35,115 nucleotides of DNA from a virus (Duplodnaviria > Caudoviricetes): positions 1-35,115 of IMG/VR virus record IMGVR_UViG_3300044667_000048, one strand, 5' to 3'. Made by a program: the position numbers and the translations under genes. The notes beneath the pieces are model-generated. The model searched no databases and was not told the DNA's origin. It saw only the letters and a list, made by a program, of their open reading frames with translations. Within the stretch, counting starts at the first letter, position 1. The number at the start of each line of letters is the position of its first letter. Below are positions 5,054 through 24,782 of the stretch, piece by piece.

Positions 5054-5122
5054 TCCACTTGGCCTCTGAGGGGGTCCCGCCCCGGGTGGGGGGTGGGCTG
5101 AGATGTCCTCGCGCGCGTGCGT

Positions 5123-6308: not shown

Positions 6309-6444
6309 CGGGGGTCTCCTCGCCGGCCTCGACGTCGGTGGCGGCCTCGGATGTGCGGGCCTGCCGGTACAGCTCTGCTCGTATGGCGGTGCGCTGCTGG
6401 GGCGCTTGTTCGGCCATGTCGCGGATGAGCTGGTTCATGTCCAC
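6301..6444 (-). CDS. Small hypothetical protein (47 aa, MDMNQLIRDMAEQ...)
   Basis: Manual translation; AGGAG RBS before GTG; fills the gap and overlaps the next start. Confidence 0.6.
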   Translation of the reverse strand: MDMNQLIRDMAEQAPQQRTAIRAELYRQARTSEAATDVEAGEETPDA

Positions 6445-6453
6445 GCGCGTCTC

Positions 6454-6867
6454 CTACGCTGCTCGGCTGGCCCGGAAGTGCTCCAGGTCCTCTCTGGTGA
6501 TCTGCCATCGGCCGTTGATCTGCTCGGCAGGGAGGCGCCCCTCTGCGATTGCTTTGACTACGCCTCGGGGCGTCATGTCGAGCAGGTCAGCGGCGTCCCT
6601 GGTGGTCACCTGAGGAGAGGATGGGGCTAGTTCCGGTTGGTTCCGGCTATCGGTTCCGGTCGCGGAACTTCGCCATGCGGCGGCGGCGAGCCTGAGCGCG
6701 GTGAGGACGGCGTCGACTTCGGGGTCTTGGCCGCGGCGTTCGATGCGGAGGCGGGTGAGGTCTGCGTGTCGTTCGAGCCAGGCGGCGACCCGGCCGGGCA
6801 CGACGACGGCGGGCGCTCCGATGCCGTGGACGTAGTGCTCGGCGGGTCGCGGCGGCTGATGCTTCAT
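6454..6867 (-). CDS. Excisionase-like HTH (HTH_17) domain protein (137 aa)
   Basis: C-terminal VTTRDAADLLDMTPRGVVKAIAEGRLPAEQINGRWQITREDL. Confidence 0.85.
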   Translation of the reverse strand: MKHQPPRPAEHYVHGIGAPAVVVPGRVAAWLERHADLTRLRIERRGQDPEVDAVLTALRLAAAAWRSSATGTDSRNQPELAPSSPQVTTRDAADLLDMTPRGVVKAIAEGRLPAEQINGRWQITREDLEHFRASRAA

Positions 6868-7040
6868 GGCCTGGCGCTCACAGGGGGGCCGTCCATGGCC
6901 TGTCGTGACCAGACCGGAATCAGGCGACTGTCATGACCTACTCGCGGGCGCACCTTCATGGGTCCGCCGGCGTAGGGCGCCTTGATGGGTCCATGAGGGT
7001 GCGCCGACGTACCGGGGGCCCATGAGGTTCCTCTGGTCAT
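6864..7040 (-). CDS. Small hypothetical protein (58 aa)
   Basis: ATGA overlaps at both ends, with 7037 and 6867. Confidence 0.5.
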   Translation of the reverse strand: MTRGTSWAPGTSAHPHGPIKAPYAGGPMKVRPRVGHDSRLIPVWSRQAMDGPPVSARP

Positions 7041-7480
7041 AGCGTTCCCCTGGGGGGAACCGTGGGCGTGGTGCCCACGGTTGAGATGTCGTGGTTGATC
7101 AGGACGCCGATGTACTGGCCTTCCTCGTCGAGGTAGCCCTGTTGGACCTCGACGCCCACTCGCACCTTGACCTTGTCCGTCATGACGTCGTCCACGAGCT
7201 TGGCCATCTGCCGTATCGCCCAGGTGATGGCGTGGGCGTCGGCGGAGGTGATCGGGCGGGTGAAGACGTCGAGTAGAAGCGCCTGGTGGACGAGGTCGAG
7301 GCCCTTGATGATCTGCCCGTAGCCGCGGGCGAGCCGGTCGGCACAGTCGGGGCACGTCCATTGGTCGCCATCGGTGAACGCGGCCACTGCATGGATCTCG
7401 TACGTCTCGTGGCAGCGCCAGCATTCGCCGTCTGCCGGCCCGGAGAACAGGGTCAGCTCAACCCGGACGGGTACGGTCAT
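7037..7480 (-). CDS. Zn-ribbon hypothetical protein (147 aa)
   Basis: AGGAGG RBS before ATG 7480; CWRC...CPDC motifs. Confidence 0.8.
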   Translation of the reverse strand: MTVPVRVELTLFSGPADGECWRCHETYEIHAVAAFTDGDQWTCPDCADRLARGYGQIIKGLDLVHQALLLDVFTRPITSADAHAITWAIRQMAKLVDDVMTDKVKVRVGVEVQQGYLDEEGQYIGVLINHDISTVGTTPTVPPRGTL

Positions 7481-7494
7481 CGTTCCTCCTTTGG

Positions 7495-7670
7495 AGGGGG
7501 TAGCGTCCGAAAGCGTCCAAGTGTCCGCAGATCGCTTTGACCTGCAGAAACGAGGGGACGGCTCTATTTCGCTGGACGGTTCAAAGCGTCCGGACGTTTT
7601 GATCTGTCCGGCCGTTTTCACTGGTCAGACCCCTTGTCGGACTCTTGGACGGTTCCGGACGCTAGGTACC
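7495..7670. repeat. Putative satellite replication origin (GTCC/GGAC iterons)
   Basis: AAAGCGTCC at 7510 and 7583, TGGACGGTTC at 7573 and 7646, and the inverted pair TAGCGTCCG 7501 / CGGACGCTA 7656, all at the 3' end of the replication gene. Confidence 0.65.
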
Positions 7671-8724
7671 TGGCGAACGCGTCTTGGAAGTGGATGAGCT
7701 GGTATCCGCGAGCGGTCTTGGCCTGGTTGTGTCCGGGCTTCACCCCGTACGGCCGGAGCTTGTCCGACAGGCCGCGAGGGGTCAGCTCAAAGTCCTTCCA
7801 TGGCGACTCCTCGATCTTGTGGAGGCGGGCGAGGAGTTCTTGAGAGGTGAGGAAGGACACCCCGGACAGGTCGGCGAAGATGTCCCGGATGTCGCCTAGG
7901 AGCTTCATTCCGAGAGACGCCTCCGCGTCTGCTTCGCTCTCCGCCGTGACGAGCTTCAGGGCGGCCAGGCGAGCGCGCCGTGGCCACTCGCCGCCTGCCA
8001 GGTCGGCAATGGCGATGAGCGGTTCCCATGTGTCCGCTGCCCGGTCCTCCACGGGCATGTCCGGCTCGGCCTTGGTGAGCCGGTCGAGGTAGCCAGCGGC
8101 CCACTGTCCGAGTCGGGCGCGCAGTTCGCCCAGCGGTACACCGTCCCGGCGGCGCCGGTACGGCTTCACCGTCTCGCCAGGGCCCCGGCGGCGCATCCGG
8201 ACCACCACGGAGCGGTCCATGATGGTGTCCGGCATGTCTCCGATGCCGGCCAGCGCCGCCATGGAGAACGTCGGGCACTCCTCAGCCATCCGCGCTGTGG
8301 CATCCCACCGGATGTACGGCCGGTTGCGCTGGTGGCCAGCGTTGATGATGCCCCGCAGGTCCTCGTTCTGGTCGGCGGCCTTCTTTCCGAAGATCGTGTC
8401 CGCCTCGTCCACAAGCAGCGTGGGAGGCTTGGCACCGATCGACCGGACCAAGGCGGCCGCCGAGATGTTCACCGTAATGAGCGGCTTGTGACACGTCGCC
8501 TCGATCACGTCGAGCAGACGACTCTTGCCGCACCGCTTCTCCGGTGCCGTGATGACCAGCCGCGTGGCGTGCTCCCACGCATCTTGCGCGTGGGTGGCAG
8601 CAGTCCACAGCGTCACCGCGTCCGCCGCGTAGGCGTTCGGCATGATGACGTACTTCAGGAGGACAGCGTGGAGTTCGTCGAGCAGGACTGCCCCGGACTC
8701 GTCACTGACCAGACGCAAGCTCAC
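7618..8724 (-). CDS. DUF3631-type P-loop replication protein (putative helicase)
   Basis: APEKRCGKS Walker A, LLVDEAD Walker B, DRAADTWEPLIAIAD motif; follows prim-pol. Confidence 0.88.
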   Translation of the reverse strand: MSLRLVSDESGAVLLDELHAVLLKYVIMPNAYAADAVTLWTAATHAQDAWEHATRLVITAPEKRCGKSRLLDVIEATCHKPLITVNISAAALVRSIGAKPPTLLVDEADTIFGKKAADQNEDLRGIINAGHQRNRPYIRWDATARMAEECPTFSMAALAGIGDMPDTIMDRSVVVRMRRRGPGETVKPYRRRRDGVPLGELRARLGQWAAGYLDRLTKAEPDMPVEDRAADTWEPLIAIADLAGGEWPRRARLAALKLVTAESEADAEASLGMKLLGDIRDIFADLSGVSFLTSQELLARLHKIEESPWKDFELTPRGLSDKLRPYGVKPGHNQAKTARGYQLIHFQDAFARYLASGTVQESDKGSDQ

Positions 8725-9500
8725 GCGCTTCTCCTGATGGTCCTGAGCGCGGAGCGCACGGTACGAAGGGCCTCGCGCTCGTCGAGGCCGATGGACTTGG
8801 CGACGGTCACCAGCTCGTCGAGGTCGTGTTCACTCGCGCCGTTCTCCAGCGCTCGGCAGCACGCCCAGTAGAGCGAGGCGTTCCTGTTGCCCTCGCCCTG
8901 TCGGGACAGCCACGCGGCCAGGCCAGGGACGCCCGTTCCAATAGCTTCCCGGCGCCGGGAAGCTATGTCCGCGGCAGGCTTAGGCGGGTCGAGTAGCTGC
9001 TTGACCGCACCCCAATTGAGCATGGCCGTACCGGTGCCCTTGTGGACGAGCGTGTACGGTCTGCCGTTGACCTCGGAGCCGGGGGCGAGCACGTACCCGC
9101 CTCGGGCCTTCCAATCGATGTGGTGCGCCTTGAGCTTCCCGCACGGCTGGGAGCTGCCGGCGACGTACACGTGCATGCCGCCGCGCGGGGTGGTGACGAC
9201 CGCGAGCGGTTCGGGGACGAGCCCGGCCCGCTTCAACCTGTTGAACGCCGGGTAGCCGGAACCCTTCTGCGTCACGTCGACGTCGAGCACGTCGAACGTG
9301 GCGGCCCCGGTAGGGATCGCAACGTTCGCGTTCGGGTGCCACGTCCACCAGCGGCGGGCGTGCTCAACATCGAGGGTCGCGTCGAGGAAGCCGCGGGGAA
9401 CGAGGCGGCCAAGCGGCGCCTTGCCTCCGGGCTCGCACGGGAACACCGGCCAGCCCCGTTCGATGTAGGCCAGGGCGGCGGCCATTCTGGTGCGGGTCAT
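8721..9500 (-). CDS. Bifunctional DNA primase/polymerase (prim-pol with PriCT-like C-terminus)
   Basis: GWPVFPC..GKAP, DVLDVD, TPRGGMHVY, GGYVLAPGS, EGNRNASLY. Confidence 0.93.
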   Translation of the reverse strand: MTRTRMAAALAYIERGWPVFPCEPGGKAPLGRLVPRGFLDATLDVEHARRWWTWHPNANVAIPTGAATFDVLDVDVTQKGSGYPAFNRLKRAGLVPEPLAVVTTPRGGMHVYVAGSSQPCGKLKAHHIDWKARGGYVLAPGSEVNGRPYTLVHKGTGTAMLNWGAVKQLLDPPKPAADIASRRREAIGTGVPGLAAWLSRQGEGNRNASLYWACCRALENGASEHDLDELVTVAKSIGLDEREALRTVRSALRTIRRSA

Positions 9501-9850
9501 CAGGCGGCCCGCTTTCCGCGCCTGGTCGCGCGGGGCGCGTGTAACGCCAACTCGTATTTAGCGCCGCATCGGGCGGTGCGCCAGACGAGCGCGGGGGCGT
9601 TGCCGCGAAGCCTGTGGTTGTGCCAGTCGCCGCATTCGCATGGCTGGTCGAGGACCACGAGCGTGGTCACGGTGCCCCAGGCCGGCGGGTAAGCGGTGGC
9701 GCTCCGAACGATGGGCAGCTGCCCGACGAACTTCCGCTTGTCGGACGTACGCGCTATGGTCGAGGTGTCTTCGGCGGCCTTGTGGTCGTTTCTGGCCCTG
9801 GCGGGAGCTGCAACTCCCCCGGGGCCGTTTTGCGTCTTCGGCTTGTTCAT
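9500..9850 (-). CDS. Hypothetical Cys/His protein (116 aa, MNKPKTQ...)
   Basis: TAATG overlap with the upstream gene; CECGDWHNH...C motif; contains a TTA codon at 9542-9544. Confidence 0.7.
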   Translation of the reverse strand: MNKPKTQNGPGGVAAPARARNDHKAAEDTSTIARTSDKRKFVGQLPIVRSATAYPPAWGTVTTLVVLDQPCECGDWHNHRLRGNAPALVWRTARCGAKYELALHAPRATRRGKRAA

Positions 9851-10056
9851 TACGCAGCACCGCCGACGTACCGAGAGTTCTCCCAGTCGATGACATCGGA
9901 CAGCTTGTAGCTGCAGACTCGGCCGATCTTCATGTACTTCGGGCCAGTGCGGGAGCTGTTCCACCGGTAGACGGTCCACACGGTGACGTTGTGGCGCTCG
10001 GCCAGTTCCTCGATGCTCAGGTGCTTCTCCAGCGGAGGCATGGAGATACGTGCCAT
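9850..10056 (-). CDS. AlpA/excisionase-like HTH protein (68 aa)
   Basis: LSIEELAER..VTVWTVYRW...GPKYMKIGR..Y..SDV..W; divergent from the repressor. Confidence 0.88.
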   Translation of the reverse strand: MARISMPPLEKHLSIEELAERHNVTVWTVYRWNSSRTGPKYMKIGRVCSYKLSDVIDWENSRYVGGAA

Positions 10057-10176
10057 GACTGAACTCCTTTAGTTCAAGTCGCACATATAACAGTGACAGC
10101 AGGAGACTAGCGCTCACTGGCGAAGTTTGGCAATATTGGACGCGACTTGAACTGAATTAGTGACATGGAGAACTAA
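10057..10176. promoter_or_regulatory. Divergent switch region with operator-like inverted repeat
   Basis: AT-rich; perfect 12-bp inverted repeat AGTTCAAGTCGC (10071-10082) / GCGACTTGAACT (10142-10153); AGTGACA at 10093 and 10159. Confidence 0.65.
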
Positions 10177-10839
10177 GTGGGCAACGCCGAGCGGCCTAGC
10201 GATGTGCTGGCGCGACAGGTGAAGTACTGGCGTACGCGGCGGAAGCTCTCAGCTCAGGCGCTTGCGGATCGCATCGCCGAGGATCAGGGCACTCTCGACC
10301 GGCCGGCTATCTTCAAGATCGAGAACGGCAAGCGCGGCGTAAGCGTCGAGGAGTGGCTACAACTCGCCTACGCCTTGGCGGTCCCGCCCGCCTTGCTGTT
10401 CCTCGACCTGGCGCGCGGCGACCAAGTTGCGGTCGTGCCCGGCGCCGAGATTCACCCGTGGCTCGCCTGGCAGTGGGTGGCCGGCGAGAGTGAGCCCATC
10501 ACCACAAACCGCCGCGGGAAGCGCACGTCCGAATGGCTGGAAGCACGGCGCTACGTCCGCACGTACGAGCGCGAGGTCGAGGCGTCTGCAGCCGTCCATA
10601 AGGCCTACAGCCGACTGGCTGATGCCGAGTTCACGGGCAAGCCCGAGGAGATCCAGGACGCCCGGGGAAAGCAGGTGGAAGCCCTACGCAACCTCGCGGC
10701 CATCTTCGACGAGATGGTCGAGCTGGAGATGAGCCCTCCCGGAAAGCCGCGTGACTGGGTCGAGATCATGCGGAGCCTGAACATGCTCAAGTACCCCGAC
10801 GCGGTCGAGATCTTCGAGCCAGACGACGACGAGGAGTGA
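10177..10839 (+). CDS. XRE-family HTH repressor (220 aa)
   Basis: RTRRKLSAQALADRI...IFKIENGKRGVSVEEWLQLAYALAV; upstream of the integrase. Confidence 0.9.
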   Translation: MGNAERPSDVLARQVKYWRTRRKLSAQALADRIAEDQGTLDRPAIFKIENGKRGVSVEEWLQLAYALAVPPALLFLDLARGDQVAVVPGAEIHPWLAWQWVAGESEPITTNRRGKRTSEWLEARRYVRTYEREVEASAAVHKAYSRLADAEFTGKPEEIQDARGKQVEALRNLAAIFDEMVELEMSPPGKPRDWVEIMRSLNMLKYPDAVEIFEPDDDEE

Positions 10840-10842
10840 GCC

Positions 10843-12018
10843 ATGGCCCGGGTGAGGGATCTTTGGTACACGAATGGCAAGGACGCTGACGGGAATCTGA
10901 TCAAGGTCCCCACCAAGCGGCATCCCGACCATGGGGGCAGCAAGACCGCTAAGCGGTGGCTCGCATGCTGGTTCGGTCCTACCGGGAAGGAGGAGACCAA
11001 GGCGTTCGCGGTCAAGACGCAGGCCGCCAACCACGCCACCACGATGGAGGCCGATCGACTCCGCGGTGTGTACGTCGATCCGAAGCAGGGCCAACAGAAG
11101 CTGCAGGAGTACGGCGAGGCTCGATGGCTGCCCGCGCAGCTTCACCTCCGGCCGAACTCGGTTGAGCTGTACGGCCAGCACTTACGCAAGCACATCTATC
11201 CCCGGCTCGGAGGCCGGCGCATCGCCACCTTGACGCGGGCCGACATGAAGGCGTTCGTTACAGCCATCTCTTCCGTGCTAGCGCCGACCACCGTGAGTAC
11301 GGTGTTCTCGGTCCTGCGCGCCTTGATGAACTCGGCGGTCGACGATGGGGTGATACCTGCCAACCCGTGTACCCGCGTCCCGCTCCCCCGCACCGAAGCG
11401 CGCGTCGTTGAACCCCTTCCAGGGCAGGCGATCCTCGACCTCGTCGAGGCCATCACCCCTCGATACAGGCTCGCGGTGTGGCTGGGTGCCGGCCTTGGGC
11501 TGCGTGAAGGTGAAGCACTCGGATTGACGCTCGCACGCGTCGACTTCCTGCGCCGCAAGGTTGAGGTGCGCTACCAGCTCCAGCGCGGCAAGCTGGTCGA
11601 GCTCAAGACGCGAGCGTCCAAGCGCACCCTGCCAGCAGACGACCTGGTGTTGACACAGATCTCCGCGCACATGCAGCAGTGGAAGCCGGGCCCTAGTGAT
11701 CTCCTGATCACGAATCGGTCCAACAAGCCGGTCGGACGGTCGGCGTTCTGGGAGTGCTGGCGGAAGGCCGTCGAGGCGGCCGGCCTGCCCAAGGGGACGC
11801 GCTTCCATGACCTTCGGCACTGCTACGCATCCACGTTGATCGCGGCCAACATCGGGCCGAAGGTGATCCAAAGTCGGCTAGGCCACGCCAAGATCGCCGA
11901 GACGTTCGACACGTACGGACACCTGTTCCCGGACGATGAGGACCTTGGTCGCGGAGCCATCGAAACCATGATCGGTAAGGCTATGGCGGAACAGGAACGG
12001 AACAGAGCGGCTGAGTGA
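10843..12018 (+). CDS. int: Tyrosine integrase (391 aa)
   Basis: Catalytic motifs GLREGE, HDLRH and LGH...TFDTYGHL. Confidence 0.97.
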   Translation: MARVRDLWYTNGKDADGNLIKVPTKRHPDHGGSKTAKRWLACWFGPTGKEETKAFAVKTQAANHATTMEADRLRGVYVDPKQGQQKLQEYGEARWLPAQLHLRPNSVELYGQHLRKHIYPRLGGRRIATLTRADMKAFVTAISSVLAPTTVSTVFSVLRALMNSAVDDGVIPANPCTRVPLPRTEARVVEPLPGQAILDLVEAITPRYRLAVWLGAGLGLREGEALGLTLARVDFLRRKVEVRYQLQRGKLVELKTRASKRTLPADDLVLTQISAHMQQWKPGPSDLLITNRSNKPVGRSAFWECWRKAVEAAGLPKGTRFHDLRHCYASTLIAANIGPKVIQSRLGHAKIAETFDTYGHLFPDDEDLGRGAIETMIGKAMAEQERNRAAE

Positions 12019-12203
12019 CCGCGTTTGCCCTGGTCGCGAGGATGAGTGTAGACGAGTCGGCCTGTAGGCCGGGTTCTGCTCACCCCGGCCTTCTGACCTG
12101 CCGATAGACCATCGGCAGGTCCTCTGACCTGCATAAACGTTTGCCGTCGTTTAGCTGTGACTAGCTGGTTCTGGAACCCTGGCACGGAACAGAGACGGAA
12201 CAG
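11987..12203. other. attP-like site: core flanked by paired arm-type repeats
   Basis: CGGAACAG at 11987 and 11998 and at 12185 and 12196 (11-bp period on both sides); 11-bp inverted repeat at 12095-12121. Confidence 0.75.
12050..12078 (-). ncRNA. rnpB: 3'-terminal fragment of RNase P RNA used as att core (not an intact gene)
   Basis: Minus strand reads CAGAACCCGGCCTACAGGCCGACTCGTCT, matching the conserved CAGAACCCGGCnUA of CR-V/P4 plus the 3' strand of P1. The upstream sequence is not rnpB-like. Confidence 0.75.
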
Positions 12204-12205
12204 GC

Positions 12206-12427
12206 TCAGTCGACGGAACGCGGCGCCTCCCCCACGCCCGCATCACGGCAGATCTTTCGGACGCTCTCGCGCGTGTAGCCGGTCGCCTTCACGATGTCCA
12301 CCTGGCGCATGCCGGCGCGGGCCGCCTCGACGATGAGGTCCGCTAGCGCCTGCCGGGCAGCCTCGGCGCGCTTCTGGGCCTCGGCGTACACCCCTGCCGC
12401 CTCTTCAAGCTGTCCCTGCGTAGTCAT
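12206..12427 (-). CDS. Small HTH DNA-binding protein (73 aa)
   Basis: AGMRQVDIVKATGYTRESVRKICR; ATG 12427 chosen over the longer track start. Confidence 0.8.
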   Translation of the reverse strand: MTTQGQLEEAAGVYAEAQKRAEAARQALADLIVEAARAGMRQVDIVKATGYTRESVRKICRDAGVGEAPRSVD

Positions 12428-12449
12428 GCCTTCTATGGTGGCATAGATC

Positions 12450-12510
12450 TCTGGCCAATCAAGTTGGCCAACCCTATTGACAACGCCAACCCGGTAGGCC
12501 AATATAGGTG
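12450..12510 (+). promoter_or_regulatory. Sigma70-like promoter with GGCCAA operator repeats
   Basis: TTGACA (12477)-N17-CAATAT (12500); GGCCAA at 12453, 12466 (within the TTGGCCAA palindrome) and 12497. Confidence 0.6.
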
Positions 12511-12543
12511 ACACAAGCAAGACGGACCGACCAGGGAGACGAG

Positions 12544-12732
12544 ATGCAGGTTCTGGCCAAGGGCAGCCGAGTCGAGTACCACGACCCCGCGTACGGGCAG
12601 GGCACGATCCTCCGGGCCCGCATCGACGGCAAGGGCGAGGACGCCGAGGCCGAATACCTGATCCGCTGGGACAACGACCCCGACCAGGAGGGCCCCACCT
12701 GGTCCTGGTGGATGGAGATCAACGCCCTGTAG
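12544..12732 (+). CDS. Small hypothetical protein (62 aa), possibly SH3-like beta fold
   Basis: GGGAG RBS; KGSRVEYHDPAYGQGTI...YLIRWD. Confidence 0.7.
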   Translation: MQVLAKGSRVEYHDPAYGQGTILRARIDGKGEDAEAEYLIRWDNDPDQEGPTWSWWMEINAL

Positions 12733-12901: not shown

Positions 12902-13474
12902 GTGAGCAATCACATCACGCCCGCCCCCACCCCGACCACCAAACTCCCCGAGTCCTGGGAGAAGGCCGCGCAGATCGCCGCCCAGCGCGCCGACATGAAG
13001 GTGCGTGCCGAGTACGAGGCCACCGCGCAGGCATACGACAAGCAGCGCGCCAGCGACGAGCCCGCCTACTGGCTCGCCGGCGACCCCTGCCCGGCCTGGT
13101 GCACGAACGGGCCGCTTCACAAGAGCAGCGACGGCCCTGCCGACCGCGAGCACGACAGCGACATCATGCGGCAGAGCCTCAACAGCATGCCGCCCATCAC
13201 GGCGTTCGCGGACTTCCGCGCCCCCGAGGTCACGCTGACGCTCACGAAGAAGTACCGCGAGGTCGAGGCCCGCGTCGAGATCAGCACCAGCGACCAGGAC
13301 GCCTACTTCGCGACCCTCGACGAGGCGGAGGGCTTGGCGTTCGCGCTGCTCGACCTCGTCCGGCAGGGACGCGGGCAGGAGCCGCCCAAGCTGCAGCTCT
13401 TCGACTCCACGGGCCGGTGCGTCACCCGCGAGTGCGTGACCTGCCACGCCGAAGCCGAAGGCGCGAGCGCATGA
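12902..13474 (+). CDS. DUF6907-like protein (CPxWC..H motif), 190 aa
   Basis: CPAWCT..H..DREH and TLDEAEGLAFALL. Confidence 0.8.
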   Translation: MSNHITPAPTPTTKLPESWEKAAQIAAQRADMKVRAEYEATAQAYDKQRASDEPAYWLAGDPCPAWCTNGPLHKSSDGPADREHDSDIMRQSLNSMPPITAFADFRAPEVTLTLTKKYREVEARVEISTSDQDAYFATLDEAEGLAFALLDLVRQGRGQEPPKLQLFDSTGRCVTRECVTCHAEAEGASA

Positions 13475-13818
13475 GCGCGGCCCCCAGACCGGCCGCCTGC
13501 CCGCCGTGGTGCTCGGTGAAGCACCTTGACGCGGACCAGCGCACGGCTCACTTCAGCGCCTTCGTCCGCGTGGGTGACGGAGTCCTCAACCTCCTGCGCG
13601 TCGAGGGCAACCCCGACAAGGACACCCGCTACGGCGTGGTGCGTCTCTCGATCATCGGTGGCCTGGTGTACGAGATGACGGAGGGAGTGGCGGCGGACAC
13701 CGCCCAGCTCATGGCGCACGTCGCCGAGGCCGGCATGGACCACCCGCTGATCAAGGCGCTATGGGAGCACGCCGAACTGCTCCGCGTCGACCGCGAGGGC
13801 TCGGAGGGGAAGCAATGA
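13471..13818 (+). CDS. DUF6907-like paralog (115 aa)
   Basis: ATGA overlap; CPPWCSVKH...H. Confidence 0.75.
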   Translation: MSAAPRPAACPPWCSVKHLDADQRTAHFSAFVRVGDGVLNLLRVEGNPDKDTRYGVVRLSIIGGLVYEMTEGVAADTAQLMAHVAEAGMDHPLIKALWEHAELLRVDREGSEGKQ

Positions 13819-14144
13819 GCAGCACTGCCACCGTCTCCTTGGACGAGTTCCACGGCGCGATCGCCCACCTCGGGCTTGCGGTGCCGCGTACGCCGCGCTG
13901 TAAGCCGTGGTGCGTCGTGCACTGCCGGTTCGACGACAACACCACGTTCTGTATGGGGCGCGACATCGTCGTGCCGGTCGTCCCCAGCGGGTATGTCGGC
14001 ATCACCTACTGCCCGGAGGAGGGCGGACAGCCCCACATCGACCTCGGGCACGGAACGGACTCCGCCACCGTAGAAGAGGCCGAGGCGTACGCGCTCGCCA
14101 TCCTCGCTCAGGTCGCCAAGGCGCGCGAGCAGGACAGCTTCTAG
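13815..14144 (+). CDS. DUF6907-like paralog (109 aa)
   Basis: ATGA overlap; CKPWCVVH and TVEEAEAYALAIL. Confidence 0.75.
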   Translation: MSSTATVSLDEFHGAIAHLGLAVPRTPRCKPWCVVHCRFDDNTTFCMGRDIVVPVVPSGYVGITYCPEEGGQPHIDLGHGTDSATVEEAEAYALAILAQVAKAREQDSF

Positions 14145-14166
14145 GGCCTTGGCCCCCCATCTCGAC

Positions 14167-14206
14167 AACCGCCGTCGTGCCACTCCGGTGCGGCGGCGGT
14201 TCTTTT
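14167..14206 (+). terminator. Intrinsic terminator
   Basis: AACCGCCGTCGTGCC-loop-GGTGCGGCGGCGGTT followed by CTTTT, after the operon. Confidence 0.7.
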
Positions 14207-14244
14207 GGTTCCCTTGCCGTTCCCCGGACGGTTCTCGGCGGCGT

Positions 14245-15140
14245 CATGGACGCGACCAACTCGGCGACCGGTCACGGTCGGATTCGTGGTCACGGACGAG
14301 GTCACATACCTGGTCGCGTAGTTTCCGCGTCCACGCAGGTCAAGCAGCATATTTCGGTTTCATTCCGGGTTTCGATTTGGACGCGACCGGCGACCGTGGA
14401 CGCGACCGGTTCGTGACCCTCAGCGTGTCCCTGTTCGTGACACATCACCGGCGCCGGCGCTGACACTTTGTGGTCGCGGGTTGGACGCGACCAACAGTAG
14501 GAACCGCCGGCAGCATCCGCGCGAGGTCTGACACTTCACCGCGTGATCGCGCCCCGACCGGTACACCCCGGTACGACCGCAGTCGAGTCGTCGGCATAGC
14601 GATCCGAGAGTGTCATGCTGACACTCTCCAGCCCTTGGGAGCGAGTTAGATGCGGGGTTACGTCGGCGATCCGGGGTTACTTTCGTAACCAGGCCCGTGC
14701 GCCCACCTAACTCCGCCTCTGGCCTGCGACGAGTTAGCCGAGTTAGGTCCCAGCGCCGAGTTAGGGAGGGAGGCTCGAACGCCCTCCAGAGCGTGTTTTC
14801 GAGGGGGCCGCGCCACCTAACTAACTCTCGCTCCCCCGCCTCCCTGCAGGGAGGTTTGCAGGTCATCATGAGGGAGGCGGCCAGGGAGGCGCGGAGGGAG
14901 TTCTCCCTGACTCTCTGACCGCCTCCCTGCCCTCCGAGGGCCGCTAGGGAGCCGCTAGACCTAGCACTGGAGCCGCGTGGCCTAGCGGCCCTGCAAGGGC
15001 CGTCCGCTTGGCCCCTAGCGGCCTAGCGGGAGGCGTCTAGGGAAGGGTCTAGCCCTAGACGGGAAGGGTCTAGGAGCTAGACGCGAGGTCTAGGAAACTA
15101 GGGCCCTCGGAAGTGGAAGAACGTGGCCCTAGACGGCCTA
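14245..15140. repeat. Non-coding array of consecutive, different short-repeat modules
   Basis: TGGACGCGACC x4; CTGACACT x3; CGGGGTTAC x2; CGAGTTAG x4 plus inverse copies; AGGGAGG/CCTCCCT cluster; CCGCTAG/CTAGCGG; GTCTAG/CTAGAC (14 CTAG in about 190 bp). Confidence 0.9.
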
Positions 15141-15211
15141 AAAGGGGGCCGCCGCTACCCGCTGGATAGAGCCTGCTGTAGCGCTCCAAGAGGGCACACC
15201 GATACCTCTGC

Positions 15212-15616
15212 ATGAATCCTCAGCAGCCCCCGCAGCAGCCGTGGCAGCAGGCCCCCCAGTCGCCGCCGCCCGCATACGGGCCACCCCCGCAGCAGCCCCA
15301 GCAACCCGGCCCGCACGGGTACGGGCCCCCACCACACCCGGCGTACGTCTACCCTCAGCCGCCGCCGTGGGCCTCCAAGCACAACGGGTTCGGGATCGCC
15401 GGCCTCGTGTGCGGGATCATCGCTGTGGTGATGCCGGTCGTGTCCGCCACTTTGGTCATGTTCGTCGGCCTGGCCGCAGTCATCCTGTCCGGTGTTGGGC
15501 TAACCAAGGCGAAGATCGGTACCGCGAACAACCGGGGCATGTCTCGGTTCGGTATGGCCCTGGGGCTGATCGCCCTCATCGGCGGCTTCGTCCTCGCCGG
15601 CGTGTACAAGCTGTGA
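15212..15616 (+). CDS. Pro/Gln-rich membrane protein, DUF4190-like (134 aa)
   Basis: PQ-rich N-terminus, then NGFGIAGLVCGII and two to three hydrophobic helices. Confidence 0.82.
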   Translation: MNPQQPPQQPWQQAPQSPPPAYGPPPQQPQQPGPHGYGPPPHPAYVYPQPPPWASKHNGFGIAGLVCGIIAVVMPVVSATLVMFVGLAAVILSGVGLTKAKIGTANNRGMSRFGMALGLIALIGGFVLAGVYKL

Positions 15617-15647: not shown

Positions 15648-15932
15648 CTAGTCCTCTGACGGCCATTCCTCTACAGGCCGTACGAAAGTCCCCTTCGCGG
15701 GCAGCGTGATCAACCAACCGCGCTCGACCAGTTCCCGAATCGCTCGCCGCACCGTGCCCAAGGCGACGCCGTAGTCACCGCTCATCTGACGTTCGCCTTC
15801 CAGCCGCGCACCGGGCGGGAGTTCGCCGGCCTTGATGCGGGCGACGACGTGGTCAGCCATGCGGACGTACACGTACTCGGCGGCGACCAGGTCAGGGTCG
15901 AACGGCTCGATCGCGGGCTTCTCGTCAGGCAC
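15648..15932 (-). CDS. GntR-family winged-HTH regulator (94 aa)
   Basis: Y.RMADHV..RIKAGELPPGARL..ER.M...YGVALGTVRRAI.EL...G......KGTFV. Confidence 0.9.
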   Translation of the reverse strand: MPDEKPAIEPFDPDLVAAEYVYVRMADHVVARIKAGELPPGARLEGERQMSGDYGVALGTVRRAIRELVERGWLITLPAKGTFVRPVEEWPSED

Positions 15933-16692: not shown

Positions 16693-19600
16693 TCAGCCGC
16701 GACTGTCGAGGTACTGGCTTGCCTGCGTGAACATCACCTGCGCGTCCACCGTCTCCCGGATGGTGGTGCCGTTGATGTTGAGCGTCTTGTTGACGACCGT
16801 CCCGCCCAGCCCCGTACCTGCGGCACCTCCTGCGGCGGCGCCTCCTCCGCTGGAGGGCGATCCGGAGTACCGCACCTGCTGAGGAGCCGACACCCGACTG
16901 CTGTTGATGGGGCCAGACGACAGCGCCGACGCACCCGAATAGGCGTAACCCTGGTCTAGCGGCTGGCTGCCCTCGACCAGCCCGCCAGGCGGCTTCGGCT
17001 TGAGCGGCTGGTTTCCCTCGACGAAGCCCGGCTTGGGCTTGGCCTTGCCCTTCGGCTTGGGGCCAGAGCCTGCGATCATTCCCGGCTCATCAGCCCCCTT
17101 CTTGCCGGTCGCGGCCTGAGCAGCCGCCACCGCCGCCGACAGGCCCTTCACAGCCCCCGACAGGCCGTCCACACCCGAGCCGAGCAGATCCACCGTGTCG
17201 CCGATGATGCGGGATCCGGCCAGCCACGACTGGTCGAGCTGGGCCGCGCTCGCCCCGACCTTGCCGATTGACGAGGTGAGACTGCCCGCCTGCCCCATCG
17301 TGGACTGCAGAGAGCCCATGACCGCCTGCAGCCCGCCGGCCACCTGCATGCCGGAGCCGTCGATCGTGACCGACAGATCGGACAGGCTCCGCGCCGCCTG
17401 CTGGTTGTTGAGCTGTAGGCCGAAGTCGTTCGCCACCTTTGACAGCAGGTCGATTGCCCTGGACCTGTAGCGCTGCTCGTACGGGATGAACGCCTCCTGA
17501 TCGGCGCCCTCCCCGTACAGGATCGTCGGCCCCGATGCGATGTTCGGGGCGGTGCTCCGCACGCCGCCTACGGCGTACCGCTCGACACCACCCTCGGCGT
17601 AGGCGACGATGCCGCCAGCGCGGGCCTTCAGGTTGTCCTGCTTGGCAATCTGGCGCTTCCGCTCGACGATGTCCGCGATGACCGTCGCGGTGACTGTCTT
17701 GCCGTCCAAGCCGTCGAGGAGCTTGCCGAGCCGTTCTGCCTCGCGGATGCTCTTCTCCGCCCCCTTGGCGGCCACGTCTGTGGAAGCCGACTTCGGGAGC
17801 ACGAGGTACTTCTTGATCAGCTTGTCGATCGCTGACTCAGACAGGCCGGCGTCCCGCATCACGCCGCGCAGCTCGGACGCATGCGTGTTGAGCACGGTGT
17901 TTGCCTTGCCGACGTCCTGGGTCTGCTCGTACACCTTCGCCGCATGGTCGGCTGCAGCCTGGGCCGCCTCGATGAGCGCCGTCCTGTTGGCCCGCCCCTT
18001 CTCGGAGTTGAGGTCGAACGACCTGCCGTTCTCGCGCAGGCTCACGGCCAGTCGATCGACAGTCCCCTTGAACCCGATTGCCGCCTGGTCGGCGGAACCT
18101 GCGGCACTGTTGAACATGCCCATCTTGCTGGTCAGGCCGCCGATCTGCCCTGCCGCGGTCGTCGCGGTGTTCCCGAGCCCGCTGATGCCCTGCTGCGCCG
18201 TCTTCGACGCAATCGCATCCAGCTCTTTCTGGTGCTTGAGCTGAGCGATCTTCTCTTCAAGTGCGTCGATCTTGTCCAGCTCGTTGTCCCACGCGAACGG
18301 GGCGAGGTTCACGACGCCCAGGTCCAGGGACGGGCCCGTGGCTTCCTTCAGCTTGTTGACCTGCTCCGTCATCGCCCGGATCTGGGAGTCGACGTCGCTG
18401 CCGGCAAGCGCCTGAATCTTCTCGGCGAACCGGCCGGCGGCCACGGCGTTCTTGTTCAGGCGGTCCTCAAGTAGCAGCAGACCGCCGGTCAGAACAGCGC
18501 CACCGAGCAGAGTTGAGGCGTTACCGACCTTGTCCTTGAGTCCGCCAAGAGCGTCTCCGAACTTGCCTGTAGCGGTCGTCACCTTGTCGAAACCGTCTCG
18601 CACGGCACCGATCTTGCTGGGGATCTCGGTGAAGAACCTGGCGACGCCAAGCCCGGCCTGAGCTGTTTTGATCGCAACGATGGCCACCGCGATCAGACGG
18701 ATGTGCTCGGGATCCATACCGGCGGTCAGCTTGGCGAGAAGGCCAAGCCCCGAGAACGCGCCGACCCCGAGCGGACCGACTGCCTCACCGATCTTGCCCA
18801 AGGTCTCGGCGAGGTTCTTCGCCAGCTCAAGCACCTCGGGGGCGTTCTCCTTCACAAACAGGATGAACTCATGGAACTCGGGCGAGTTCTTGAGATTCTG
18901 GCCCCACTTGGAGAACGCCAGACTGGCCTTCTCGACTCCTCCCACGATTGTGGGTGTGAACGGCAGGAAAGCGTCGATGACGCCGGCGACCCCGGTCGAG
19001 ACATTGATGAACGAGTTGCCCAGGCCCGTCATCGCCCCGGGGATCTGAGTGTTGATGTTGGTCAGGAACTGCTGCCAGAACGGGCCGGTCAGGGCTGTCT
19101 CGGCGTTCTTGCCGAAGGTCAGCAGTCCGGCGCTGGCGCTTTTGGCGAGCGGAGTGGCCTCTTCAAGCCCCACCCTCATGAGGCGAAGTCCCTGGTCGAT
19201 GACCGGGAACACGTCCGGCTCCAGGGCGCGCTGCCACTTGATGTACTCGTCCTTGAAGCTCTTGATGTTCTTGGCGAGGGCGATCTCTTCCTTGTTCAGG
19301 TCGGCGAACGCATCCCTCGCCTTCGCCGCCCCACCGCCGCCGCCGGACATGGCCTGCTGCTGCTGAAGATGGGCGATCTTGAGCTGCTGGGCTGCCTGCT
19401 CCGTCTTGGCCTGGGCGTCCTTCAGCCTCTCTAGGGCGTCCTGGTATTCCTTCGTGCCCTTGACGCCCTCACGGTTGGCCTCAGTGGTGTCCTTGCGGGC
19501 CCGCTGCGTCTTGACCTCCTGCTCACGGGCCCGCTGCTGGGCCATTTCCAGGGAGAGCTGGGCTCGCTCGATCTCCAGAGCTGTGGCCTTGGGGTCGCCT

Positions 19601-20520
19601 TGGAGCTCGCTGAGCCTCGCCTCGGCCTCGCGCACGGCGAGAGCAGCGTCTTTCTGGCTGAGGATGGACCTCTCCAGGGAGAAGTTCATGTCTTCCAGAG
19701 CCCGTCTGCCAGCCTCGCGCGCCCGGGTCAAGTCTTCCTGGGCAGCCCTCTCCTCGGCCTGAGCGTCCTTCAGCCTGCGCTCGGCCTGCTCCAGTTGCAT
19801 GGCCTGCTGGGCCGCCTGAGCCGCGGACTGGCCAGCGCCACCGGTGGCGGTGCCAGCGCTCTTAGCAGCGGTCTCCTGCGCCTTGAGCGCGTCATTGATG
19901 CGGCCAAGGGCAGGAATCGCCACCGCGCCAAAAGCCGCAGCTCCAGCCCCCGCCGCAGCGAACGCTCCGCCGAGCGCGGTCACGCCGACAGCGATCGTCG
20001 TCACCGCAGGCAGGGACGCGAGAGCCGCGCCCACGAGGGCGATGCTTCGCAGCGCGCCGGCCACGTCGGCATTGACGTCGACCCGAGCGTCCTTACCGTT
20101 GAGCTTGGACACCTCAGCGTCCACAGCGCGCAGCTCAGCGAGAGCAGAGCCGATGTCGGCCTTGACGTTGATGTCGGTCTCGGCGCGCTCCAGCTTCTCC
20201 AGCTCGCGCTCGATCTCCTGGATCTGCGCCATGGCGTCGGCAGCGCTTATGTCGATGCCGATGCGCTTGTCGCTGAGCGAGTCCATCTGGGACCGCAGCT
20301 CCGCGAACTTGATCTCAGCAGCAGTCGAGTCCGCGTCAATCTTGATCTTCGGTAGGGCCTTCGTTGCTGCTTCCAGCCGCTGACGCATCCGGTCAGCGGA
20401 CGCGCCCGTCTCCGTCATCTGACGAGACAGGTCCTGAGCGCCGCCCTTGGCCTCACGCATCCCAGCGACGAATCCGCTGACCCGAGCCCGCAGGTTGATC
20501 GAGATAGAGCGGTCAGCCAC
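16693..20520 (-). CDS. Phage tape measure protein (1275 aa)
   Basis: Long Ala/Gly-rich helical protein directly after the tail chaperones. Confidence 0.95.
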   Translation of the reverse strand: MADRSISINLRARVSGFVAGMREAKGGAQDLSRQMTETGASADRMRQRLEAATKALPKIKIDADSTAAEIKFAELRSQMDSLSDKRIGIDISAADAMAQIQEIERELEKLERAETDINVKADIGSALAELRAVDAEVSKLNGKDARVDVNADVAGALRSIALVGAALASLPAVTTIAVGVTALGGAFAAAGAGAAAFGAVAIPALGRINDALKAQETAAKSAGTATGGAGQSAAQAAQQAMQLEQAERRLKDAQAEERAAQEDLTRAREAGRRALEDMNFSLERSILSQKDAALAVREAEARLSELQGDPKATALEIERAQLSLEMAQQRAREQEVKTQRARKDTTEANREGVKGTKEYQDALERLKDAQAKTEQAAQQLKIAHLQQQQAMSGGGGGAAKARDAFADLNKEEIALAKNIKSFKDEYIKWQRALEPDVFPVIDQGLRLMRVGLEEATPLAKSASAGLLTFGKNAETALTGPFWQQFLTNINTQIPGAMTGLGNSFINVSTGVAGVIDAFLPFTPTIVGGVEKASLAFSKWGQNLKNSPEFHEFILFVKENAPEVLELAKNLAETLGKIGEAVGPLGVGAFSGLGLLAKLTAGMDPEHIRLIAVAIVAIKTAQAGLGVARFFTEIPSKIGAVRDGFDKVTTATGKFGDALGGLKDKVGNASTLLGGAVLTGGLLLLEDRLNKNAVAAGRFAEKIQALAGSDVDSQIRAMTEQVNKLKEATGPSLDLGVVNLAPFAWDNELDKIDALEEKIAQLKHQKELDAIASKTAQQGISGLGNTATTAAGQIGGLTSKMGMFNSAAGSADQAAIGFKGTVDRLAVSLRENGRSFDLNSEKGRANRTALIEAAQAAADHAAKVYEQTQDVGKANTVLNTHASELRGVMRDAGLSESAIDKLIKKYLVLPKSASTDVAAKGAEKSIREAERLGKLLDGLDGKTVTATVIADIVERKRQIAKQDNLKARAGGIVAYAEGGVERYAVGGVRSTAPNIASGPTILYGEGADQEAFIPYEQRYRSRAIDLLSKVANDFGLQLNNQQAARSLSDLSVTIDGSGMQVAGGLQAVMGSLQSTMGQAGSLTSSIGKVGASAAQLDQSWLAGSRIIGDTVDLLGSGVDGLSGAVKGLSAAVAAAQAATGKKGADEPGMIAGSGPKPKGKAKPKPGFVEGNQPLKPKPPGGLVEGSQPLDQGYAYSGASALSSGPINSSRVSAPQQVRYSGSPSSGGGAAAGGAAGTGLGGTVVNKTLNINGTTIRETVDAQVMFTQASQYLDSRG

Positions 20521-20629
20521 GACTCACCCCCCGAACGTCACGGTTTGAGTCGTTTAGCCCCACAGCACGCCTGGTGCGTGCGATCATCCAAGCGAATCGG
20601 GGGGTTCACATCTATCGAGGAGAAGACCT

Positions 20630-20746
20630 ATGAACCTGCAAGGCCCCGAACTGCTGATGATCCTGGTTGTGCTCCTGCTGCTGGGAGCGATCATCTTTGG
20701 CGTTGTCTTCGCTGCCGTGCGGATGGCAAACCGCAAGCGGTCTTAG
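20630..20746 (+). CDS. Antisense-oriented small membrane protein (38 aa), moron-like
   Basis: GAGGAG RBS; MNLQGPELLMILVVLLLLGAIIFGVVFAAVRMANRKRS, a single TM helix with a basic tail. Confidence 0.75.
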   Translation: MNLQGPELLMILVVLLLLGAIIFGVVFAAVRMANRKRS

Positions 20747-21165
20747 CTGACCTGCTCCACAAACCGAATCAGCGCATCTGAGCGGACCGTTGGCATCTTG
20801 GAGCGCTGCTCGTCATCCTTGAGAAGGGCGTCACAGCCGTAGCAGCGGGCCGGTTCTGGCACGCGGTAGCTGTGGACAGGCTCCCCGTTCGCCATCGCCG
20901 TTGTGTCGGCAAGCTGCAGTCGACATGTGGGGCATCGCCCGTTGAGCCACCGCCGCCACGCCTGCGCCCACGACACGTCCTCGGGCAGCCAGCGCGGCTC
21001 CCAAGTCGTGACCGTCCGTACGAGGCGGTCCCCCTCGTACACAAACTCCGTCGTAGCCTGTGATTGGCGTCCCAGCAGTTCACTACGCGGGACGCCAAAC
21101 ATGGCGGCTACTTCGAGTTCTTCCTGGAGCTCTGGAGAATCGCGGAGGCGGCGAACGAGAAAGGG
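20743..21165 (-). CDS. Tail assembly chaperone GT extension (-1 frameshift product)
   Basis: Open -1 frame entered at the slippery heptamer C CCT TTC (21159-21165); CPTC...CYGC. Confidence 0.8.
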   Translation of the reverse strand, partial: PFLVRRLRDSPELQEELEVAAMFGVPRSELLGRQSQATTEFVYEGDRLVRTVTTWEPRWLPEDVSWAQAWRRWLNGRCPTCRLQLADTTAMANGEPVHSYRVPEPARCYGCDALLKDDEQRSKMPTVRSDALIRFVEQVS

Positions 21166-21662
21166 ACGTCCACATCCCTCTTGTTCACGGAGAACGCGGC
21201 GCTGACGAGGCTGTCCCACTGCGCCTGCGTGAGCACGTCCGCAAGCTGCTCGGCCTCCACGACGCTCATCTTGGGCTCGACCGCGCAGGCAGACACGAGC
21301 GCGACCGAGAACGTCTCCCAGTCGACCTCCGCGCCATTCTCCCTGTCCTCGTCGCTCGGAGGGCAGGAGGCGACGATGTCGGAATACTCCTTGCGCGGCC
21401 TGCCCTGGAACCGGAAGACGCGCGTGTGCTCACGCATCCGCTCACGCAGTTCCATGATCTGCTGCGCGATCTGGGTAGCCATCGGGTTGGCTCCGCCCGC
21501 GAGCGTGCCGTCCGCCGGCTGGTCGCGAGCGATCGCGAGATCACGCTCCAGGTCCTCGAACTCCGCCTGCAGATCACCAGCCAGGCAGATCGGAACCGTC
21601 TTCTCCGGGCGCTTGACCCGGCCGATGATGTCCGCGATGGCCTCGGACTTGGTCGAGGTCAC
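21108..21662 (-). CDS. Tail assembly chaperone G (184 aa)
   Basis: Lies between tail tube and TMP; DVPF slippery site near the C-terminus. Confidence 0.88.
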   Translation of the reverse strand: MTSTKSEAIADIIGRVKRPEKTVPICLAGDLQAEFEDLERDLAIARDQPADGTLAGGANPMATQIAQQIMELRERMREHTRVFRFQGRPRKEYSDIVASCPPSDEDRENGAEVDWETFSVALVSACAVEPKMSVVEAEQLADVLTQAQWDSLVSAAFSVNKRDVDVPFSFAASAILQSSRKNSK

Positions 21663-22150
21663 GCCGCCACCGTCGCCTCAGTCGTGTACGGCCCAGAGGC
21701 ATACAGCTTGAGCTGGACCTTCTCGTACGACTCGCGCTCAGGCGCCATCGGCCGGCGCTCGCCGCAGATCACCTCGTAGACCTCGACCTTCTGGCCAGCG
21801 GCATACCCCGTGGTGGCGGCGACGCCGCGGCGGACGACCAGAAAGCCTGCTGTCCCGCGGGTCATGACTGACCACATGCGGTCGGCGCCGGCTGAACTGT
21901 CCCTGTAGTACGTGAGCTCGATTTGAGCCTTGGTGCGTCCGGGACTCTCGAAATCCTGCGTCGAGGCCAGGACGTTACCCTCGACGGTGCCCTCGTCGAA
22001 AGAGATGTCCAGGCCGTCATCGGTGACGGTGTTCTCCAGAGCGATGGCACCCGCCGCGGTCAGCTCGGTTCCCGCCGACGGGCTGCTGATGCTAGCGATG
22101 GCGGGGACGAACGTCGCCTTAGTGTTGCCGTCGGTAAGCCTCTTGCCCAC
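21659..22150 (-). CDS. Major tail tube protein (163 aa)
   Basis: DGNTKATFVPAIA..P...EL and GFLVVRRG......AGQKVEVY, typical of actinophage tail tubes; position. Confidence 0.88.
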   Translation of the reverse strand: MGKRLTDGNTKATFVPAIASISSPSAGTELTAAGAIALENTVTDDGLDISFDEGTVEGNVLASTQDFESPGRTKAQIELTYYRDSSAGADRMWSVMTRGTAGFLVVRRGVAATTGYAAGQKVEVYEVICGERRPMAPERESYEKVQLKLYASGPYTTEATVAA

Positions 22151-22153
22151 GGC

Positions 22154-22369
22154 CTACTCCTTGTCTTCCGAGGCAGGCCGAGATGCCGCCTTCTTGGGCT
22201 TGGGGGAACTGGTCTCTTGCGAGGAGTCGCCGGCGGGCGTGTCGGGCTCATCGCCAGTCTCGGATGGGTCCTCGATGGTGTAGCCCTCACGGCCCTGCCA
22301 GTAGGGCAGGGCGAAGGCGTCGACCTCGAAGGTGTTGCCGTACGGGTCGCGGATGGTCAGCGAGCTCAT
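22154..22369 (-). CDS. Small hypothetical protein (71 aa)
   Basis: ATGA overlap; low-complexity charged tail. Confidence 0.65.
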   Translation of the reverse strand: MSSLTIRDPYGNTFEVDAFALPYWQGREGYTIEDPSETGDEPDTPAGDSSQETSSPKPKKAASRPASEDKE

Positions 22370-22692
22370 GCGCGCATCACCGCGATGGAGATGGTCGTAG
22401 TCGGCGAGCACGCGATAGCCACACGACCATCAGCCGGGTCCACGTAGGCCGGCAACAGCAGGATCGGCACGTCGGCCCCCGCAGCGATGGTCTTGGTCTT
22501 GACCGGGTTGGCCACGCCGTAGGGGGTGTTGCCGGGAACGGTGATGGTGGCGGTCGTGGAACTGCCGGCGCCGTTCCGGATGATGACGAACGTGCCGGGG
22601 GTGTACAGCACTCGGTCGCCCGAGCCGCCGACCGTGCTGTAACTGATCGCCGCCTCGCTGGAGATCGCTTGCGAGGTATCGAGATTGGCCAT
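22366..22692 (-). CDS. Putative structural protein (108 aa)
   Basis: GAGGAG RBS; beta-rich, Thr/Gly-rich; located in the tail region. Confidence 0.75.
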   Translation of the reverse strand: MANLDTSQAISSEAAISYSTVGGSGDRVLYTPGTFVIIRNGAGSSTTATITVPGNTPYGVANPVKTKTIAAGADVPILLLPAYVDPADGRVAIACSPTTTISIAVMRA

Positions 22693-22712
22693 ACGGCTCT
22701 CCTCAGGGCATG

Positions 22713-22735
22713 AAAAAAGCCCGCCGTGGCGGGCT
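22713..22735 (-). terminator. Intrinsic terminator inside the late operon
   Basis: AGCCCGC-CACG-GCGGGCT followed by a T run on the minus strand. Confidence 0.7.
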
Positions 22736-22749
22736 GGGGACAGACGAGG

Positions 22750-23160
22750 TCAGACCGGATCTGACCTGGTCACGTACTGGGAGGTGGCGTAGAACAGCGC
22801 GGTCGAGTCGTCCTCGCGCCTGATGGGCTGAGCGCCTTCCTCAACCGCCGGCCAGACGCGACGACCGGCCAAAGTAGGGACAGAGCCGAGCACCGCGGCG
22901 GCCATCTTGTCGGCCACCCACGCCGCCTGATCGCGGCTCTGGCCGACCGACGTGATTTGGTAGCGCAGTTCGTTCGGGCCGTCGTTTACGAGGTTCCGGT
23001 GGAATCCCGACTTCATGCCGGTATCGAAGTAGGCCACCGCGTATGGCGGATCAGCGTCCGGCAGCGCCTCACCGTCGTGGATGACCAACGTGCTCGGCAC
23101 GGCGGTCCGCCACACGGTGAGGAGTGCATCCACGAGCGGCCTGGACGGCAGTGGCGTCAC
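22750..23160 (-). CDS. Tail terminator/completion protein (136 aa)
   Basis: PPYAV, YQITSVG.SRDQA.WVAD; position. Confidence 0.8.
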   Translation of the reverse strand: MTPLPSRPLVDALLTVWRTAVPSTLVIHDGEALPDADPPYAVAYFDTGMKSGFHRNLVNDGPNELRYQITSVGQSRDQAAWVADKMAAAVLGSVPTLAGRRVWPAVEEGAQPIRREDDSTALFYATSQYVTRSDPV

Positions 23161-24780: not shown

Positions 24781-24782
24781 TG

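Follow-up and report, generated by a model that had tools for sequence, protein, structure and literature searches.

TraB-driven conjugation of double-stranded DNA ranks among the main routes by which genes move between filamentous actinomycetes, and a clt locus can work with TraB supplied in trans. The C-terminus of TraB recognizes the repeats of its own clt, and the protein pumps dsDNA (PMC4447253); in pWTY27, TGACACC repeats are bound by TraA (PMC3583192). Helper-dependent mobilizable elements are treated in reviews nearly always in terms of relaxases and T4SS. Non-conjugative plasmids of Staphylococcus aureus, served by a relaxase-in-trans of the pWBG749 family, carry two to three oriT variants, mostly of different subfamilies (PMC4652767), and multiple oriTs broaden the range of helpers (PMC11389934). 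For TraB, action in trans on chromosomal clt-like DNA (clc) has been proposed (PMC11571958, PMC3218068), as have helper-dependent derivatives of AICEs, namely DAICEs and Frankia elements without tra or rep (PMC11571958, PMC9513070, PMC3218068). In the accessible portions of these texts, clc, DAICEs, and Frankia elements figure as single sites scattered about, or as elements that still have traB or were called remnants, none with stacked clts of several specificities. The open literature, in its accessible parts (including PMC9513070, PMC5704250, PMC2440964, PMC12282955, and bioRxiv 10.64898/2026.01.13.699239), describes neither a hitchhiker with multiple clts nor a satellite that has a TraB locus, although a precedent may be contained in clt papers behind subscription or in supplements. 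Among phage-dependent elements, the EPIPs of Mycolicibacterium aichiense are 11 kb in size, carry a serine integrase as well as small terminase, tape-measure, and head-tail adaptor and stopper genes, and have a prophage partner (PMC12822802).

The DNA analyzed here (the window, 35,115 nucleotides) contains an array of seven repeat blocks (Table 1) that resembles the clt loci of pSVH1, pIJ101, pJV1, and pWTY27, that is, clusters of short repeats as they occur right after traB-like genes; with the clt of pWTY27, block 2 has TGACAC in common (PMC3583192, accessible text). Whereas each of the natural loci examined has one array beside its own traB, five to seven different words are stacked here in a satellite that has neither traB nor spd. 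As in the S. aureus multi-oriT plasmids, several distinct predicted transfer sites reside, without transfer genes, on an element that is not self-transmissible. According to the text available, however, those plasmids are moved by single-strand relaxase/T4SS systems and have two to three scattered sites, whereas here dsDNA transfer by TraB, an integrative satellite, and up to seven adjoining predicted sites would be involved. By analogy, the array is best read as a putative dsDNA counterpart of the staphylococcal plasmids, with more keys, and located in a phage satellite.

Table 1. Features of the window and, in the last row, Spd-like genes at other loci.
Feature	Position	Strand	Remark
Small terminase (4516-5058) and tape-measure gene (3972 to contig start)	1-5058	-	
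Prim-Pol, DUF3631 Rep, and the satellite's putative own origin (GGACG words, ~7500-7664)	7500-9500	-	
Repressor and tyrosine integrase	10177-12018	+	
Attachment core, putative attP	12054-12081	+	At both ends of the 17-kb G313 relative
DUF6907 gene, DUF6907-like gene, small gene	12902-14144	+	
Terminator-like hairpin	14167-14201	+	Ends the upstream operon ahead of the array
Repeat array, seven blocks, 0.9 kb	14245-15140	.	Non-coding
Block 1, GGTC(A/G)CG/TGGACGCGACC words	14245-14496	.	Both strands, around GCAGGTCA octamer (14335); AT-richer middle
Block 2, TGACAC words	14436-14628	+	Perfect inverted repeat 14606-14628
Block 3, GGTTAC/GTAACC words	14653-14691	-	Nested within block 4; best alignment traB flank L174
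Block 4, CTAACT/AGTTAG array	14640-14826	-	Collinear with traB flank L311
Block 5, AGGGAGG-type array, full-length copy	14759-14935	-	Overlaps block 4 at 14762-14826
Block 6, CCGCTAG/CCTAGC array	14941-15029	+	Resembles traB flanks L178, L197
Block 7, GTCTAG/CTAGAC array	15030-15135	-	Resembles traB flanks L182, L212, L201
Small membrane protein	15212-15616	+	Weak DUF308/DUF4190
GntR-family regulator	15648-15932	-	
Head and tail genes	16693-35115	-	Probable helper prophage
Spd-like genes with internal arrays	L283:4574-6100; L305:6838-7689; L307:8209-9177; L315; L357		

The window is one viral contig whose left part consists of satellite-type genes and whose right part consists of prophage genes. 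Bases 1-108 are identical to 16912-17019, a 108-nt tape-measure stretch, and the contig therefore reads as a 16.9-kb loop to which the phage is joined via the common tape-measure end. The carrier of the array is likely a phage satellite from soil actinomycetes, ~16.9 kb in size and encoding a tape measure but not TraB; the host probably belongs to the Streptosporangiaceae, and the named homologs of DUF6907 come from Nonomuraea. The depth of the Logan contigs, a weak measure and a hint only, from a run that is possibly the source sample, was 20.3 (3550-12594), 17.6 in the array, 16.4 beside it, and 23-30 in the phage tape measure. As expected of a phage satellite, the element has an integrase, a repressor, replication genes, and a small terminase and tape measure, and lacks capsid, portal, and large terminase genes; its relative in G313 is bounded by two att copies. 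An excisionase-like HTH protein is also encoded in this part. Integrase plus replication genes likewise characterize AICEs, but the TraB that an AICE would have of its own is missing. With EPIPs, the element shares integrase, small terminase, tape-measure gene, small genome, and prophage partner; it differs in its size of ~17 kb, its tyrosine integrase, Prim-Pol/DUF3631 replication, and a predicted transfer locus, whereas a transfer module is not mentioned in the accessible EPIP text (PMC12822802). Identity with EPIPs was therefore rejected: small terminase and tape measure fit, serine integrase and ~11 kb do not. On the minus strand, the attachment core is similar to the terminal part of the gene for RNase P RNA (RF00010, E 0.011, below the gathering score), and integration of the satellite at rnpB is a possibility. 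A search with the integrase among viral contigs found nothing. Co-assembly and tape-measure similarity point to the prophage as the probable helper. The tape-measure genes of satellite (1-3972) and phage (16693-20520) share ~82% identity in their two terminal parts but not in the middle, which suggests that the satellite may hijack tails by means of a tape measure matched to its helper.

The array stands out from the window by its repetitiveness: it is the highest-ranking 900-nt bin for local repeats, and locally repeated 7-mers cover 67% of it, compared with 26 ± 5% (maximum 42%) in 200 dinucleotide shuffles. The repeats noticed in the first-pass annotation were largely recovered. Direct copies of TGGACGCGACC lie at 14247, 14378, 14397, and 14482 (four in the entire window), CTGACACT at 14460, 14528, and 14618 together with a 23-nt inverted repeat at 14606, CGGGGTTAC at 14653 and 14672 with GTAACC at 14685, CGAGTTAG at 14642, 14730, 14739, and 14757, and CACCTAACT at 14704 and 14814; the palindrome is present at 14839, CCGCTAG/CCTAGCGG words span 14941-15022, and GGGAAGGGTCTAG occurs at 15040 and 15061. 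The inverse copies claimed for block 1 turned out to be shorter words (GGTCGCG at 14312 and 14472, CGTCCA at 14328) and not full inverse 11-mers. That the region holds no credible coding sequence was borne out by the GC3 of its ORFs (0.56-0.75 versus 0.80-0.95 in the adjoining genes), and the codon-position GC skew of the flanking genes is absent from them. The two array ORFs scanned had no match in Pfam or PHROG. A translated region or decayed gene was ruled out on these grounds, and candidate RNA families or tRNAs were rejected, as none reached its gathering score. Also in agreement with the annotation, TraB was not found in the window by either HMM or tblastn searches, nor was Spd. A Logan contig, from a run that may be the source sample, spans 13570-15223 without differences. 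The borders of the array are formed by the terminator-like hairpin on one side and the small membrane gene on the other. In BLAST searches with the whole array, only block 5 matched a plasmid, and nothing credible was found in phages; searches of the family genomes gave short matches in 10 of 251 (best two candidates per genome), and the genus-level search covered two genomes. No second copy of the exact array was found in the plasmids, phages, or 251 family genomes searched.

The plasmid matched by block 5 is from Streptomyces (77% over 96 nt, E 2e-9). A pattern common to both was found at four viral and at least 120 GTDB genome loci, and it adjoined TraB at all four viral loci and, among the matches listed, at 110 of 120 genome loci. 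At 74 of 80 long loci (again among the matches listed), it lies 19-55 nt after the stop codon of a TraB-like gene and always on the opposite strand, whereas at the short loci a TraB C-terminus was seen in 36 of 40 of the matches listed; two further loci were judged by eye to be TraB ends truncated by the contig border. A profile of 115 natural copies matched 14759-14921 of the window with an E value of 1e-22. Block 5 agrees with this profile in 78 of 92 strongly conserved but only 10 of 44 variable columns, 24 of the conserved bases having been fixed beforehand by the search pattern; it keeps the conserved columns, and its spacers have diverged. Its score of 74.6 bits is low for a natural copy, exceeding that of only 2 of the 115.

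For the other blocks, flanks of 110 TraB-like loci from 121 family genomes (among the 150 matches listed, of 180) were sampled; the family is taken to be the Streptosporangiaceae on the basis of a 16S primer motif. The joint database consisted of 129 traB flanks and, as a control drawn from one Rep family, 33 DUF3631-Rep flanks. Every block match reported from it was to a traB flank, and no block aligned with any of the 33 DUF3631 flanks. The satellite's own origin, used as a control, matched the Rep flanks (E 4e-18); the test can therefore separate the two classes. None of 100 shuffles each reached the observed score for blocks 3, 5, 6, and 7, and 5 of 100 did so for block 4; for blocks 1a, 1b, and 2, the numbers were 19, 56, and 73 of 100. 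Blocks 3, 4, 6, and 7 aligned best with 3′ flanks of traB genes from groups other than that of block 5. The collinearity of block 4 with its counterpart, one of the pairwise targets chosen for shared words, begins at the traB stop codon, and blocks 4 and 5 have a spacer in common. Thus, repeat clusters like those beside traB are found in blocks 3-7, the best matches of which adjoin traB, whereas block 2 conforms by its word alone, which occurs after a TraB-like gene; to this extent the annotation's idea of clt mimicry was upheld. By their position, the natural counterparts of the blocks would be clts.

The flanks of traB bear group-specific words. With at least three copies required, CGCGACC, GTTAC, GTTAG, CGCTAG, and GTCTAG were found in 5, 3, 4, 10, and 5 of 107 traB flanks, respectively, and in none of 107 coding controls; TGACAC and AGGGAG were absent from the 107 family flanks, and GTCAC showed no enrichment there (6 vs 4 and 4). 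Among the 33 Rep flanks, GGACG occurred in 19 and GTTAC, the word of block 3, in 4, whereas AGGGAG, GTTAG, CGCTAG, and GTCTAG occurred in none. In a quick tree built from 83 TraB rows, the words clustered (30 changes vs a shuffled mean of 57.7, reached in 0 of 200). The cognate TraB proteins are mostly 19-41% identical to each other (one pair, 58%), and up to six TraB-like matches, among those listed, came from a single family genome. A triple GTTAG pattern was rejected: 11 of 151 Streptomyces-family genomes matched, the reversed control matched more, and no TraB was found beside the matches in these 151 genomes.

The annotation had offered foreign origins or decoys as its alternative; in this reading, the array would mainly comprise foreign replication origins or iteron decoys, borrowing or titrating Rep or primase-helicase proteins of phages and AICEs. 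Origins have the same layout of words plus TGACCTGC as clts do. The octamer TGACCTGC/GCAGGTCA, perhaps the site of a host factor, is located at 7538, 12094, 12125, 14335, and 14858 of the window and turns up at many loci, within clt-like arrays and Rep origins as well as close to att sites; its enrichment in traB flanks is modest (28/71 vs 19/71 coding and 10/69 downstream). Because words and octamer are common to clts and origins, an origin role is possible for blocks 1-3. The layout of block 1 (forward words, AT-richer middle, reverse words) is like that of the L785 array, which is contained in an initiator-like gene of a phage, next to a DnaC-like ATPase; TGACAC and GTAAC arrays are present in phage rep-like genes, and the sibling array L144 bears a clear DUF3631-origin block (E 6e-14). 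The C-terminus of one TraB (L307:9024-10991) weakly matches DUF3631 (E 0.002), the family of the satellite's Rep, so that the readers of both kinds of site may overlap and may share a winged-helix ancestor. On the other hand, traB flanks gave the best alignments for blocks 3-7, no match was found among Rep flanks (one Rep family as control), and the satellite already has an origin. The alternative applies to L144 and is possible for block 1 and in part for blocks 2 and 3; as an account of the whole array, it is unlikely.

Block 1 scored alike against a CGCGACC-type traB flank, an array in an Spd-like gene, and an origin-like array of a phage, the targets having been picked afterwards for shared words. 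Its cognate may accordingly be any of the three types: a CGCGACC-type traB flank, iterons of a phage initiator gene, or an Spd-gene array. A metagenome scan for block 1 returned 103 loci, all unrelated tandem repeats except for phage L283, and neither block 1 nor block 2 had a copy in 11 tape-measure loci. Six copies of the word of block 2, TGACAC, are located just after a TraB-like gene on plasmid p1 of Nonomuraea gerenzanensis (NZ_CP084059.1), the product of which is 38% identical to a satellite TraB; TGACAC and GGTCAC words also occur in phage initiator-like genes. Viral scans for TGACAC/GGTCAC patterns yielded some origin-like arrays and no traB-adjoining match among the loci examined, one of these scans taking in the 64 loci above 60% GC. 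Matches in pAL5000 and ReqiPine5 were discarded, being inside genes and without arrays.

Relatives of the satellite were drawn from searches for DUF6907 (13 of 251 genomes) and the tape measure (16 of 301 genomes). The context of the tape measure, examined in 13 of the 16, revealed four satellites, eight prophages (five with a TraB-like gene as well), and one unclassified locus. All four satellites carry spd, traB, and one repeat array on the same side of the tape measure. In G313 (C11, ~240500-257600; L307, L321), 17 kb lie between two copies of window 12054-12081; integrase and repressor are 72% and 62% identical to those of the window, head genes have no match, and the order is DUF6907 genes, DUF2637 (Spd-like), TraB, one GGTCTAC array, and GntR. 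The other three, G396:C17 (L305, L324), G679:C14 (L345, L346), and G681:C1 (L347, L348), have Spd, TraB, and one GTGGCA array; TraB of G396 has an in-frame stop near its C-terminus. DUF6907 genes directly precede spd/traB in the relatives, and the GntR regulator comes after the traB array in three of the four. These integrated copies back the placement of the window's element among satellites, and the comparison of module content that the annotation had called for gave one array each with traB there versus seven blocks here. As the relatives have spd/traB at this site and the window has none, the array occupies the place of the transfer cassette. Judged from gene content, the four ~17-kb elements are candidate self-conjugative phage satellites. 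Spd/DUF2637-like membrane genes themselves contain internal word arrays (GACGCGACC, CGTACC, TGACAC) and often have a helix-turn-helix-like C-terminal end.

The type of TraB differs among the relatives at this site, the blocks have diverged from known copies, and the searches turned up no conserved second copy of the array, all of which would suit functionless debris, left behind as transfer cassettes replaced one another at a hot spot of recombination. Against debris, there is no traB or spd remnant between the blocks (scattered matches with E 0.01-0.05 appeared in a relaxed search only), which lie edge to edge or nested. Moreover, an extra block near an AGGGAG array is more common at loci scored TraB-less (5 of 10) than at traB-adjoining loci (8 of 115) in an automated count, though most of the five are related elements; because the ten loci are a mixed set (a pIJ101-type plasmid, a truncated TraB locus, and an unpublished locus are among them) and several are related, the count serves as a lead rather than a statistic. 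Debris is improbable. The same sequence evidence that speaks for docking sites would also fit decoys that soak up TraB or Spd of rival elements and hinder their spread; satellites commonly interfere with their helpers, and block 1 matches arrays within the Spd-like genes L283 and L357. Blocks 4 and 5, however, retain entire clt layouts including spacers, which is beyond the need of a bare sink, the array sits where relatives have the transfer cassette, and TraB, once docked, is expected to pump the DNA it has bound. A decoy function is very unlikely; it and debris are the weaker readings.

The array is probably a key ring of several clts, permitting mobilization of the satellite in trans by several TraB pumps. 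Most blocks resemble likely docking sites of different pumps, so the satellite likely hitch-hikes on several unrelated mating systems. Presumably, an ancestor possessed a transfer cassette, of which the genes were lost, and gathered trimmed clts of several specificities. The excised circle would replicate from its Prim-Pol/DUF3631 origin, and a foreign pump in the same hypha, encoded by another plasmid, AICE, or prophage, would dock at one of the borrowed clts and move the circular DNA into other cells; re-integration would be by the integrase of the satellite. Block 1, in contrast to this role, may serve as a site of the origin or Spd type. The helper phage would probably also package the circle, using the TerS and tape measure of the satellite. 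Evenly balanced, in our judgment, is the broader proposal of a double pirate, which would use helper phage particles as well as any of at least five TraB pumps, including those on helper-type prophages. It would belong to a widespread class of actinomycete hitchhikers that collect clt and origin blocks, within a family spanning self-conjugative satellites to gene-free multi-key derivatives. If true, TraB systems have dedicated hitchhikers invisible to gene-based surveys, one element parasitizes phage packaging and conjugation alike, and the pairing of word and TraB is a readable code for who mobilizes whom, from which helper range could be told by sequence. The blocks also constitute a ready panel for TraB specificity and possibly a multi-helper transfer cassette for actinomycete vectors.

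Arrays of more than one block exist elsewhere. L046, L053, L062, and L120 are small int-xis elements of Streptomyces without TraB, in which an AGGGAG block is accompanied by one or two others, as it is in L114. On the pIJ101-type conjugative plasmid CP109096.1 (L001:8930-9160), a foreign AGGGAGG block is followed by GTAACC/GGTTAC words. L144 (G513; L144:1380-2570, L320 4206-~10670) is a tRNA-Arg element of ~6 kb that has genes for an integrase and an excisionase-like protein but lacks TraB. Its array combines clt-type and DUF3631-origin-type blocks; besides the latter, there are a CTAG block resembling blocks 6-7, CCGCACA-like blocks, and a GGGTCTAC block. The element is thus a candidate for a minimal hitchhiker in transfer as well as replication.
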